Source: a bacterium (GTDB lineage: Bacteria > Patescibacteriota > Minisyncoccia > UBA6257 > GWB1-50-10). Taken from it: 40,558 nucleotides of DNA. This document shows, piece by piece, positions 3,900-6,905 of the stretch; the first letter of the stretch is position 1; every line of letters begins with the position of its first letter. The notes beneath the pieces were generated by a model, which was not told where the DNA came from, made no database searches, and saw only the letters and a list, made by a program, of their open reading frames with translations. The stretch lies in the NCBI GenBank assembly GCA_021791395.1, contig JAJYWR010000004.1, positions 1 through 40,558 on the forward strand, in the 5' to 3' direction. Made by a program: the position numbers and the translations under genes.

Positions 3900-3940
3900 T
3901 AATCGTTACGAATCACCAAAATTACGCTATAATGCAATCA

Positions 3941-5608
3941 ATGCTTCAATCGAAAAAAGACGTGGAAGAAGCGCTCCAAAGACAGCGGCGCGAAGCGGAG
4001 GAAAACGACGCAAAGCGGCGGGCTGCGGAGCGCGGATTTCCCTACCTCAACCTCATATCGGCAAAGGCACCGACTGAAATCCAAGCCATGTCCCTCGTTC
4101 CGGAAAACGAGGCGCGGGAAGCCCTTCTTGCTCCGCTCCAAATTTCAAGAAAAAAACTCCGCGTGGCCGTCTTCGATCCCGAGCTCCCAAAAGCGAAAGA
4201 GCTCCTCAAAAAACTCGGGGAGGCACACGAAATTTCCGCGAATGTTTCATCGATGACGAGCCTTGCTCACGCATGGAGCTACTACCGGTACGTGGTCCCC
4301 GAAAAAGAAATCACCGGCAAGGTGGACATCAATGAAACGACGCTGAATGAGTTAAGGGGGAAGATAAAGAGTCTGGAAAACCTGAACGCGGAACTTGCCG
4401 GATTTTCAAGCCCCTATCTTTCACAGGTCCTCGAGATCATTCTCTCGGGAGCAATCGCGCTCGGTGCTTCTGATATTCACCTCGAACCGACGGAAGAATA
4501 CGGGGTTCTCCGGCTCCGCATTGACGGCCTCCTTCACACCGCGTACGACAAGTTCAATCTCATGATGTATCGGTCGATCGTCACTAGGATCAAGCTGCTT
4601 TCGAGCTTGAAACTCAACGTTTCGAATGAACCACAGGACGGGAGGTTCACCATCGGCCTTTCCGACCGCAACATCGAAATCAGAACCTCCATCATTCCCT
4701 CCGACTACGGGGAAATGGTGGTACTCCGGCTACTGGACCCCAAAGCGCTCAGGGTCAACCTCGAGGAATTGGGGTGGCGGCCCGACGATCTCGCGATTGT
4801 TTATGATGAAATCAAAAAACCGAATGGCCTCATTTTGAATACCGGCCCGACCGGATCGGGAAAAACGACGACGCTCTATGCGTTCCTCCGGAAGGTCTTC
4901 AAGCCCGAGATGAAAATCATCACCGTCGAAGATCCGATCGAATACCATCTACCGGGCATTTCTCAAACCCAAGTGGATGCGGCTGCTGGGTATACGTTCG
5001 CTTCCGGCCTCCGGTCGATCTTGCGGCAGGACCCGAACGTCATTCTAGTCGGCGAGATCAGGGACAAAGAAACGGCCGACATCGCCCTCAACGCTTCTTT
5101 GACCGGCCACTTAGTCTTTTCAACACTCCACACAAACGATGCCGTCGGCGCCATTCCCCGCCTTATCGATCTCGGCGTGCCAACAAACATCTTGGGACCG
5201 TCTCTCAGTCTTATCATCGCGCAGAGGCTCGTACGGGTCCTCTGCGAGGCGTGCAAAGCGGAAGTAAAACCCAATGAAACCCTGAAGGAAAAAATTCGAT
5301 CATTTTTAAATACCATCCCGGAAAGGGTGGACAGATCCCCGTACGCGGATTACAAGATTTATGAGAGCCGCGGGTGCGACCAGTGTGGACACATCGGCTA
5401 CAAAGGGAGGACGTCGATTTTCGAACTCTTTACCGTGGATGAATCGGTCGAAGGAGCAATTTATAAAAACCCGACCGAAATGGAATTGAAAAAACTTGCG
5501 AAGGACAGCGGTATGGTGACCATGCAAGAAGACGGCATTTTGAAGGTGTTACGAGGCACGACGAGTTTTTCAGAAGTTGAACGATTAACCGGGCCGATCG
5601 CGTGGTAA
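3941..5608 (+). CDS. pilB: Type IV pilus / type II secretion ATPase, GspE/PilB family
   Basis: ASDIHLEP, PQDGRF, GPTGSGKTTTLY, EDPIEY, LRQDPNVILVGEIRD, TGHLVFSTLHTND, CxxC pairs and GYKGR. In-frame ATGs at 3932 and 3941; 3941 is preferred because 3932 overlaps the -10 box. Confidence 0.9.
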   Translation: MLQSKKDVEEALQRQRREAEENDAKRRAAERGFPYLNLISAKAPTEIQAMSLVPENEAREALLAPLQISRKKLRVAVFDPELPKAKELLKKLGEAHEISANVSSMTSLAHAWSYYRYVVPEKEITGKVDINETTLNELRGKIKSLENLNAELAGFSSPYLSQVLEIILSGAIALGASDIHLEPTEEYGVLRLRIDGLLHTAYDKFNLMMYRSIVTRIKLLSSLKLNVSNEPQDGRFTIGLSDRNIEIRTSIIPSDYGEMVVLRLLDPKALRVNLEELGWRPDDLAIVYDEIKKPNGLILNTGPTGSGKTTTLYAFLRKVFKPEMKIITVEDPIEYHLPGISQTQVDAAAGYTFASGLRSILRQDPNVILVGEIRDKETADIALNASLTGHLVFSTLHTNDAVGAIPRLIDLGVPTNILGPSLSLIIAQRLVRVLCEACKAEVKPNETLKEKIRSFLNTIPERVDRSPYADYKIYESRGCDQCGHIGYKGRTSIFELFTVDESVEGAIYKNPTEMELKKLAKDSGMVTMQEDGILKVLRGTTSFSEVERLTGPIAW

Positions 5609-5631
5609 ATAAATTCCTCAATAACGAAATA

Positions 5632-5668
5632 AAATCCCCCGGGCACATAAATGCTCGGGGAATTTTTT
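5632..5668. terminator. Bidirectional intrinsic terminator (pilB on +, putative ncRNA on -)
   Basis: Stem CCCCGGGCA (5637-5645) / TGCTCGGGG (5652-5660) flanked by A-rich and T-rich runs. Confidence 0.7.
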
Positions 5669-5669
5669 C

Positions 5670-5805
5670 TCACCAATGAGAGGTCTGTGGGCATAATGCC
5701 GTAAGGAGAGGCTTTATTAAGATTCACTCGAGGAGGTGCCCAGCCGAAACCAAGCAGTCCGAAATCTGGAGCAAATCTCCTGCCCACAGGCCTCTCATCA
5801 GTGAC
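5670..5805 (-). ncRNA. Putative structured ncRNA, ~135-nt rod-shaped hairpin (6S RNA-like candidate; family unassigned)
   Basis: 24-bp terminal stem 5670-5693/5781-5804, further nested pairings, UUCG-capped apex, upstream promoter and downstream terminator. Confidence 0.6.
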
Positions 5806-5812
5806 AGGTATT

Positions 5813-5841
5813 ATATTAGCATAAACGGTTTTAAATGTCAA
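5813..5841 (-). promoter_or_regulatory. sigma70 promoter for the putative ncRNA (TTGACA-17-TAATAT, extended TGn)
   Basis: Reverse-complement -35 at 5836-5841 and -10 at 5813-5818; predicted TSS ~5805. Confidence 0.7.
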
Positions 5842-5897
5842 CCCTCGAAGAGACTGGTTCAGTAGGTGTATAATGGGAGAGGAAATAAGCAGATAAA

Positions 5898-6905
5898 ATG
5901 CCCAAAAATCAAGAAAAAGCGAATATCCCCGACGAGACACAGAGCATCGAGCAACTCCTCCGCCCGCAGAGCTTTGCGGAATACGTCGGCCAGGAAAAAA
6001 TCAAAGACCACTTGAGACTCATCTTGTCAGCGGCAAGGGGTCGCCACGAAAGCTCGGACCATCTGCTTTTTTACGGACAAGCAGGACTTGGAAAGACGAC
6101 GCTCGCTTACATCATCGGCCAGGAAATGGGAGTGGGAGTCAGATCGACATCGGGGCCAGCCCTCGAAAAACCAGGGGACATCGCAGCTATTCTTTCAAAC
6201 CTCGAACCGAATGAAATCCTTTTTATTGATGAAATCCACCGCATCAACAAATTAGTCGAGGAGATTTTTTATCCAGCCATGGAATCCCGGAAGCTCCATC
6301 TTGTGATCGGCAAGGGGCCGGCGGCAAAAACATTCACCCTCGACTTACCGCCCTTCACCGTCATTGGAGCAACCACGAAAGTGAATCTCCTTTCAGCGCC
6401 TCTCCGTTCCCGCTTCGGTGCGACATTCAGGCTGGACTACTATCAGGACGCCGACATCGAGAAGATTATCAAGCGTTCTGCAAAAATTTTGAACGTCACG
6501 GCAACCGACGGCGCCGTACACCTTCTCGCCGGAGCATCGCGATTCACGCCCCGGGTCGCAAACCGGCTTTTGAAGCGAGCGCGCGACTACGCACAAGTAA
6601 AGGGGGTTCCGGAAATCGACGAAAATGTGGTGGCGCGGACTCTCGAGATGCTCGAAATTGATTCCCGGGGACTGGAGAACGCGGATCGAGAACTTTTGAG
6701 CGTGATCATAACGAAGTTTGGCGGCGGGCCAGTCGGCCTCAAAACGCTCGCGGCATCCCTTAACGATGAAATGGACACAATCGAGGAAGTATATGAGCCA
6801 TTTCTCATGAAGCTCGGATTCCTTCAACGAACGCCCTCTGGAAGAGTGGCGACAAAGCTTGCTTACGAGCACCTGGGGCTCGAGAAAGAAAAGAAACTTC
6901 TGTGA
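5898..6905 (+). CDS. ruvB: Holliday junction branch migration helicase RuvB
   Basis: LRPQSFAEYVGQ, GQAGLGKTTLA, LFIDEIHR, PLRSRFG, EPFL and RTPSGR. Confidence 0.97.
   Translation: MPKNQEKANIPDETQSIEQLLRPQSFAEYVGQEKIKDHLRLILSAARGRHESSDHLLFYGQAGLGKTTLAYIIGQEMGVGVRSTSGPALEKPGDIAAILSNLEPNEILFIDEIHRINKLVEEIFYPAMESRKLHLVIGKGPAAKTFTLDLPPFTVIGATTKVNLLSAPLRSRFGATFRLDYYQDADIEKIIKRSAKILNVTATDGAVHLLAGASRFTPRVANRLLKRARDYAQVKGVPEIDENVVARTLEMLEIDSRGLENADRELLSVIITKFGGGPVGLKTLAASLNDEMDTIEEVYEPFLMKLGFLQRTPSGRVATKLAYEHLGLEKEKKLL

Follow-up and report, generated by a model that had tools for sequence, protein, structure and literature searches.

6S RNA (SsrS, RF00013) is described in PMC8876501 as a rod of ~200 nucleotides (nt) with a central bubble between its closing and apical stems; in the case of Bacillus subtilis 6S-1, the 3′ side of the junction also bears a small hairpin. 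The small RNA of the signal recognition particle (SRP; 4.5S, RF00169) is a hairpin-like housekeeping RNA that is conserved near its tip, variable near its ends and provided with an asymmetric loop. In addition, there are orphan structured non-coding RNAs (ncRNAs) of bacteria, such as the raiA motif and OLE, which are lineage-restricted, have a covarying complex fold and no known function, and keep a conserved position beside particular protein genes. Here we analysed a 40,558-nt stretch of DNA (hereafter the window; contig JAJYWR010000004.1 of assembly GCA_021791395.1, Patescibacteriota), which carries on its minus strand, between pilB and ruvB, an RNA gene comparable with each of these, referred to below as the pilB-ruvB RNA.

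The pilB-ruvB RNA resembles 6S RNA in being small, probably abundant and transcribed from its own sigma-70 promoter, in the long closing stem that joins its two ends, in its apical arm, and in the small hairpin that its central region bears on the 3′ side; it differs in having no two-sided bubble, no RF00013 score and a multi-helix junction, and in that it coexists with RF00013-type RNAs elsewhere, its own genome holding a separate, better 6S candidate. The features of SRP RNA listed above are likewise seen in it, but no SRP model matches it, the partner proteins are absent from the genome, and it has neither the GNRA-type loop nor the symmetric-loop motif typical of SRP RNA. It shares all the traits listed for the orphan classes, whereas it differs from the raiA motif and OLE in architecture, clade and neighbours, and shows no sequence or model similarity to any Rfam entry. 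Judged from its sequence and its relatives, the pilB-ruvB RNA represents a family of structured ncRNAs not catalogued before, which is lineage-specific, single-copy and of housekeeping type. An earlier, sequence-only reading of this stretch had suggested either a compact, divergent 6S-like RNA or a novel ncRNA of the Candidate Phyla Radiation (CPR); the latter view held, in that none of 4227 Rfam families matched the window at the gathering score or the locus (5550-5950, 401 nt) at E <= 10, the RNA has its own conserved promoter and strong covariation, and it is single-copy across the order and much of the class.

Promoter, boundaries and fold of the RNA gene

By homology searches, sequences of the RNA were collected at three levels. 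A first covariance model was made from eight same-genus sequences with the structure set by hand; 25 family sequences were realigned with it and the model was then rebuilt (R2); and covariation was counted over a wide set of 74 sequences from across the order. The window's own genome is labelled G000 (580,713 bases assembled, 85% complete), and G061 is a closed genome of the same genus (804,691 bases). Because the sequences were aligned by fitting them to the model, and because the genomes are related to one another, all pairing counts given below lean towards the structure and do not represent independent events. The features of the gene are as follows (window positions).

5836-5841, minus strand: −35 hexamer TTGACA (promoter scan; pattern conserved upstream of homologues)
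5813-5821, minus strand: extended −10 TGCTAATAT, TG at 5821-5820 and TAATAT at 5818-5813 (promoter scan)
5669-5805, minus strand: conserved RNA core, 137 nt from P1 to P1 (full-length R2 match, 137.5 bits)
5781-5804, minus strand: 5′ strand of closing stem P1, with a variable outer part (5804-5791), unpaired C 5790 and near-invariant inner part CUGUGGGCA (5789-5781) (covariation)
5769-5779, minus strand: 5′ strand of helix P2a, GAGAUUUGCUC (covariation)
5761-5768, minus strand: 5′ side of the asymmetric internal loop, CAGAUUUC, 8 nt with conserved AG, opposed only by UC 5731-5730 (consensus of 75 sequences)
5732-5760, minus strand: most conserved module, GGA 5760-5758 pairing with UCC 5734-5732 around a hairpin, with conserved UC(G) after it (conservation)
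5719-5729, minus strand: 3′ strand of helix P2a, GAGUGAAUCUU (covariation)
5698-5712, minus strand: small hairpin P3, GCC 5712-5710, a 9-nt loop and GGC 5700-5698 (homologue alignments)
5670-5693, minus strand: 3′ strand of P1, UGCCCACAG (5693-5685), unpaired A 5684 and outer part 5683-5670 (homologue alignments, covariation)
5627-5668, either strand: terminator hairpin common to the RNA and to pilB, its convergent neighbour; both strands carry U-rich tracts (fold and scan)

The promoter consists of TTGACA (5841-5836), a 17-nt spacer ending in TGC and TAATAT (5818-5813), scoring 10/12 with the TG extension, and it was the sole promoter-like site listed by the consensus scan in 5300-6200. The pattern TTGAC[AT]-N16-18-TAnnnT was present no more than 90 nt upstream in 66 of the 74 order-level homologues, 64 of which also carry the TGn extension. 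From the position of the −10, transcription is predicted to start at ~5806-5805; the folded stretch begins about 7 nt beyond the promoter. Downstream, the minus-strand fold gives a terminator hairpin at ~5660-5637 followed by UUUUAUUU; the consensus scan lists this hairpin for the plus strand only (5637-5660 plus AATTTTTTCT). As U-rich tracts flank the hairpin on both strands, it can end both the RNA and the pilB message. In 31 of the 74 order-level homologues a T-run directly follows P1.

The overlapping open reading frame (ORF; 5461-5940, minus strand, 159 amino acids) has no Pfam match, and the eight same-genus homologues, 136-138 nt long, differ from one another by 1- and 2-nt indels; because of these two observations the region is regarded as not coding. 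The minus strand is the RNA strand: 94.5% of cells of its alignment pair, compared to 81.6% on the opposite strand, and 521 G-U cells are found in it versus 71 A-C cells. Three metatranscriptome contig sets of the same study contained 0 contigs on 5560-5900, which has no bearing either way. As far as can be read from these features, the locus is a real minus-strand gene with its own conserved, near-consensus sigma-70 promoter.

The fold energy of the RNA was −85.8 kcal/mol compared to −53.0 ± 4.3 for shuffled sequences (z = −7.6, 0/200 shuffles as good). P1, the closing stem of 24 base pairs (bp), joins 5804-5781 to 5693-5670 and contains two G-U pairs and a single C/A mismatch (5790/5684); changes on both sides were observed in 23/23 of its pairs among the 74 sequences. 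Its outer half is variable and covarying and its inner half (CUGUGGGCA/UGCCCACAG) near-invariant, with the unpaired C opposite A between them. The word CUGAUGAG, which is the core word of the hammerhead ribozyme, occurs at 5801-5794; since it lies in the variable outer P1 and is lost outside close relatives, a hammerhead ribozyme was rejected, and its occurrence in this strand (5794-5801, minus) is most likely due to chance. P2a is an 11-bp helix (5779-5769 with 5729-5719) with both-side changes in 11/11 pairs, and homologues back the pairing of AGAUUUGCUC (5778-5769) with GAGUGAAUCU (5729-5720). P3 covaries in 3/3 pairs where it can be aligned, gaps occupying 29-35 of 74 cells; at its site relatives have one or two longer hairpins, and some have another on the 5′ side of the junction, which in the window's own genome is 1 nt. 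Because homologues support the P2a and P3 pairings, the RNA is a three-way junction, becoming a four- to five-way junction in distant relatives, and not a plain bulged rod.

Regarding the tip of the molecule, a G-U-rich apical hairpin, UGCUUGGU-UUCG-GCUGGGCA, is formed at 5756-5737. The lower four pairs of its helix covary, and almost every sequence retains the G-U pairs of the upper part (UUGG-U...G-CUGG). At alignment columns 89/121, 90/120 and 99/110, G-C pairs were kept in 73-74 of 74 sequences, and at columns 98/111 a G-U pair in 68 of 74. The apical loop itself varies (UUCG, UCCG, UCAG, UGCG and others), and an inserted helix takes its place in class-level relatives. Sequence conserved beyond what covariation needs was found at CUGUGGGC/GCCCACAG, GGA/UCC, UGG...GCUGG and UCCUC.

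Over the whole fold, 95.9% of cells pair among the 25 family sequences, with double changes in 30/48 pairs, and 94.5% pair among the 74 order sequences, with compensatory changes in 44/48 pairs; homologues with such changes had been named as a check by the sequence-only reading. For the order set, 0/500 shuffles reached the observed pairing, and slid controls paired in 34-51% of cells. The top 24 column pairs by mutual information were all pairs of the proposed structure, and no pseudoknot or long-range pair stood out among the consensus columns by this measure. Taken as a whole, the earlier reading was thus partly confirmed: its extended-TG promoter, closing stem with two G-U pairs and one mismatch, UUCG-capped apical helix, intrinsic terminator and lack of a credible protein are all recovered here, whereas its inner register is not. 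Of the inner pairings it had proposed, GGAGA/UCUCC, GCU/AGC and a second AGAUUU/GAAUCU are not kept outside the genus, where GGAGA/UCUCC are not even complementary, and its bulged rod gives way to the three-way junction supported by covariation.

Catalogued RNA classes at the locus and elsewhere

No Rfam match at E <= 0.1 was obtained at 20 class-level homologous loci. BLAST against Escherichia coli genomes gave no match for the RNA, which is uninformative. In the parts of the literature that our searches covered, no RNA of this kind was described, nor were 6S or SRP RNAs of these bacteria.

According to the sequence-only reading, the RNA could be a compact 6S-like RNA, i.e. a divergent species that imitates an open promoter and as such binds to RNA polymerase holoenzyme. 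Several properties agree with this: both ends form a closing stem, an apical arm and a strong promoter are present, the distribution is of housekeeping type, and a small hairpin lies on the 3′ side of the junction, as PMC8876501 reports for B. subtilis 6S-1. However, there is no two-sided central bubble; the 5′ side of the junction measures 1 nt, and a multi-helix junction backed by covariation stands in its place. RF00013 and RF00169, models that had been proposed for checking the locus, gave no match there at E <= 10, and RF00013 had none in the window at the gathering score (46.4 bits) and 0/1 in the own genome. What is more, RF00013 matches were found in 7 of 151 class genomes, all away from the locus of the pilB-ruvB RNA, and three of these genomes carry both RNAs.

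G327: RF00013 at C1:126974-127144, 52.1 bits (above the cut-off); pilB-ruvB RNA (R2) at C1:46201-46335
G368: RF00013 on C7, 42.4 bits; pilB-ruvB RNA (R2) on C2
G206: RF00013 on C7, 35.9 bits; pilB-ruvB RNA (R2) on C4

These 6S-type RNAs of the class have GGGAG...CACCCACC in common, and a further covariance model (R3) was built from them. R3 gave a weak match in G061 at 385377-385567 on the plus strand (20.6 bits, E 0.23), the counterpart of which in G000 lies on contig C12 at ~49528-49677 on the minus strand and is 72% identical. The C12 candidate is a rod preceded by a TGATATAAT promoter (TGnTATAAT); its closing stem is accompanied by a U-run, and GGGA and ACCCACC border its bubble of 16/12 nt. 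The length in the two genomes is ~150-190 nt. RF00013 was its top Rfam match, though at only 17.6 bits (E 0.24); the copy in G061, with its long apical insertion, was not among the matches of this model. A motif scan for GGGAG...CACCCAC in G061 and G000 gave no convincing 6S candidate, the C12 one having arisen from R3. Although weak on scores, this candidate fits the definition of 6S RNA far better than the pilB-ruvB RNA does. With no bubble and no RF00013 match at the locus, RF00013-type RNAs at other loci of three genomes and a bubble-bearing rod on the own contig C12 and in G061, we consider the 6S-like assignment of the pilB-ruvB RNA very unlikely.

A derived SRP RNA was weighed in the same manner. 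Of the near-universal bacterial RNAs, SRP RNA is the only one that was not otherwise detected in these genomes, which, together with the hairpin-like form, conserved apical region and asymmetric internal loop, is in its favour. On the other hand, the positions where the symmetric loop would be expected covary as ordinary pairs, RF00169 has no match at the locus at E <= 10, and neither Ffh nor FtsY was found by PF02978/PF00448, tblastn or a signature regular expression. RF00169 was likewise without match in the own genome (0/1) and five near-complete relatives (0/5), whereas it matched in 13/14 control genomes; that RNA searches work in this lineage is shown by the 5S rRNA, transfer-messenger RNA (tmRNA) and RNase P RNA, which were found by Rfam models. 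Within the family, PF02978 was in 0/6 genomes and PF00448 in 0/5 (no true match); in 61 order genomes these two models returned P-loop fragments only, and in 81 phylum genomes SRP54 domains had no match at E <= 1e-10. By tblastn with E. coli Ffh, the best E values were 0.94 in G000 and 1.5 in closed G061, and an SRP54-signature regular expression gave 0 matches in G000 and G061 and 1 in the E. coli control.

In summary of these searches, neither Ffh, FtsY nor SRP RNA was detected in G000 (85% complete) or closed G061, and the SRP pathway seems to be missing, by sequence search, in the genomes searched. This absence is claimed for the searched genomes only, because PMC8321541 lists accessions of Ffh from other CPR bacteria. 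Since Ffh and FtsY are absent, the pilB-ruvB RNA is not an SRP RNA in our reading, and the chance that it is a derived 4.5S RNA is judged to be slight in the extreme.

The Rfam models of tmRNA, 5S rRNA and RNase P RNA did not match at the RNA locus, and these three RNAs were found by the same models at other loci (tmRNA in 4/4 relatives). In G000, ARAGORN gave 28 tRNA genes and no tmRNA, and RF00023 gave only tRNA-sized partial matches; with a full tmRNA in 4/4 near-complete relatives, the tmRNA gene of G000 probably lies in its unassembled part. Y RNAs, which associate with Ro, usually have the gene of their Ro60/TROVE partner adjacent to them; no Y-RNA family of Rfam matched at the locus, the neighbours are pilB and ruvB, and the genome was not searched for a TROVE domain. 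A cis-regulatory leader or riboswitch was rejected as well, since downstream of the RNA on its own strand come the terminator and then the antisense of pilB, an arrangement also seen in 50 of 51 loci.

Distribution, neighbours and proposed role

The RNA locus is present in one copy in its own genome. BLAST detected it in 27 of 96 family genomes, including 8/8 of the genus, and R2 in 90 of 96 (77 of the 80 high-quality ones). At wider range, R2 matched in at least 109 of 151 order genomes, a lower bound because a search with filters off finds diverged copies in families first scored negative; these copies adjoin ruvB, with 43.9 bits in family f20 and weakly in f18. R2 further matched in 54 of 151 class genomes. 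In a phylum sample of 6 genomes of the same class and 144 of other classes, matches were obtained in 3/6 and 0/144, respectively, with a search model built from one family. Family genomes have a single R2 locus each, second matches being that very site read on the opposite strand. The only order genome with two separate loci is G294, in which C6:82306-82461 (73.4 bits) is flanked by ruvB and pilB, and C6:9845-9977 (76.6 bits) occupies another part of that contig.

These counts bear on the idea, already raised as an alternative by the sequence-only reading, that the element is a miniature inverted-repeat transposable element (MITE) or another mobile repeat, or else a chance hairpin. Its long terminal inverted repeat is what such an origin would leave; however, one copy in the genome and one locus per positive family genome refute a mobile repeat, and the fixed position and widespread compensatory changes fit neither version, so that we regard this explanation as almost certainly wrong.

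The genes on the two sides of the RNA are the following.

3932-5608, plus strand: pilB-type ATPase gene, convergent neighbour (Pfam T2SSE 3.2e-116, MshEN)
5898-6905, plus strand: ruvB, divergent neighbour (Pfam RuvB_N, AAA_lid_4, RuvB_C)

The gene pilB lies tail-to-tail with the RNA in 25/25 order loci and 25/26 class loci, and ruvB head-to-head with it in 25/25 and 22/26, respectively. On the plus strand, a perfect TATAAT at 5869-5874 precedes the ruvB start codon by 24 nt, which puts the promoter of ruvB and the −35 of the RNA back to back; the consensus scan omitted this TATAAT because it has no good −35. At E <= 1e-30, none of 27 genomes of order families f7, f10, f14, f19 and f21 had a RuvB match, all other order families being positive. 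The RNA is present in 4/7 genomes each of f21 and f7, where RuvB is 0/7 each, and its dependence on ruvB was therefore rejected. PilB occurs in 151/151 order genomes, so co-occurrence of the RNA with pilB is uninformative.

From the sequence features described above, we propose, with a probability of roughly 0.5, that the pilB-ruvB RNA is an abundant, stable, trans-acting RNA whose invariant parts bind a conserved protein. P1, which in many relatives is directly followed by a U-run, would serve both as a terminator and as a clamp protecting both ends, and it is because of this protection that the RNA is proposed to be stable and abundant. A sequence-specific platform for a conserved protein would be formed by the near-invariant parts: the inner half of P1 including the C/A mismatch, the asymmetric loop bearing AG...GGA/UCCUC, and the G-U-rich helix. 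As such a platform would bind protein, the RNA may have a trans-acting role in a ribonucleoprotein, whether as RNA subunit, as scaffold or as sequestering partner.

Four points weigh against this proposal. Protein binding, the transcript, its ends and its abundance are all inferred. The invariant G-U pairs and loop nucleotides could also be needed for catalysis or for contacts, either tertiary or between RNAs. As the compared genomes are related, their counts are not independent events. Finally, pilB adjoins the RNA in 50 of 51 loci, and so constant a position is explained by a local role, in cis or as antisense, no less naturally than by one in trans.

The last point leads to the main rival explanation, in which the element is a local regulator or insulator of the pilB-ruvB junction: a strongly transcribed antisense RNA gene with one or more of three functions, namely to keep pilB transcription from running on into ruvB, to provide a terminator used jointly with pilB and a promoter region used jointly with ruvB, or to pair with transcripts that read through. 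The nearly constant convergent pilB and divergent ruvB, the terminator hairpin usable on both strands and the TATAAT that sets the two promoters back to back are all what one would expect of such an element. However, a plain terminator or promoter would suffice for this purpose, and a 48-pair covarying structure of the minus strand with invariant loop and G-U positions is left unexplained; the RNA overlaps neither coding sequence and persists where RuvB was not found, and co-occurrence with the ubiquitous PilB is silent on the matter. We consider such a local role unlikely.

Resemblance to the end of 16S rRNA and implications

Regarding what a trans-acting pilB-ruvB RNA might bind, its most conserved 3′ strand, GGCUGG-N3-AC-UCCUC, resembles GG(A/C)UGGAUCACCUCCU at the end of 16S rRNA, and in three relatives that strand reads GGCUGGAUCACUCCUC. 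The RNA could thus be a mimic of the 16S rRNA 3′ minor domain (helix 45 plus GAUCA-CCUCC tail) that binds or titrates a 30S-platform factor such as Era, RbfA or KsgA, or docks on the platform itself. In both molecules a hairpin is followed by a string, GGCUGG...AC-UCCUC here and GGCUGGAUCACCUCCU in the rRNA; in the pilB-ruvB RNA, however, the central part of this string varies and is base-paired, a UUCG-like loop stands in place of GGAA, and the register to the loop differs. PMC10582724 states that Era recognises the base of helix 45, GAUCA and CCUCC, and PMC9297842 puts on record a Parcubacteria subgroup without the anti-Shine-Dalgarno (anti-SD) sequence; the 16S rRNA of G061 ends in GGAUCAAUUAAAC and lacks the anti-SD. 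Against the mimic, the stretch equivalent to GAUCA is base-paired and covarying, being neither single-stranded nor conserved, and UCC is paired with GGA. In addition, the RNA is found in genomes that have an anti-SD as well as in genomes that lack it, no enrichment of Shine-Dalgarno (SD) words is seen upstream of starts in G061 or G000, and the resemblance was spotted by eye, after the fact. This explanation is therefore held to be improbable.

In G061, the 3′ end of its 16S rRNA lies near plus-strand coordinate 744946 (on the minus strand), and there is no CCUCC within 1200 nt downstream of GGAUCAAUUAAAC. At the starts of G000 and G061, GGAGG-type words were not enriched upstream, whereas −10-like words (TATAA, ATAAT, TGCTA) were enriched at −20 to −3, which suggests that many mRNAs in these two genomes are leaderless or short-leader. 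Since SD enrichment is absent in both, an anti-SD mimic would have nothing to pair with. The idea that the RNA replaces the anti-SD was rejected on this ground and on its distribution: among 30 class genomes with a readable 16S tail, 9 had the RNA without the anti-SD, 9 had both, 9 had the anti-SD without the RNA, and 3 had neither.

A more specific form of the proposed trans-acting role is that the pilB-ruvB RNA is the subunit of an undescribed class-wide ribonucleoprotein acting on the translation apparatus of bacteria without SRP and partly without an anti-SD tail, for instance by docking on the 30S platform or by holding a 30S assembly factor via the GGCUGG...UCCUC module. This would be speculative, and we think it rather improbable.

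To our knowledge, only a small number of RNA classes persist as single-copy genes throughout an entire bacterial class, and those known to us (rRNAs, tRNAs, RNase P RNA, tmRNA, SRP RNA and 6S RNA) are all at the core of gene expression. The exclusion of 6S RNA removes the default label from the pilB-ruvB RNA and leaves a clean, testable orphan RNA with a conserved P2 platform. A further class-wide single-copy RNA in ultra-small bacteria (~0.6 Mb), with a consensus promoter and a 48-pair covarying fold, suggests a core function or ribonucleoprotein not yet known in a large uncultured part of the bacterial tree.

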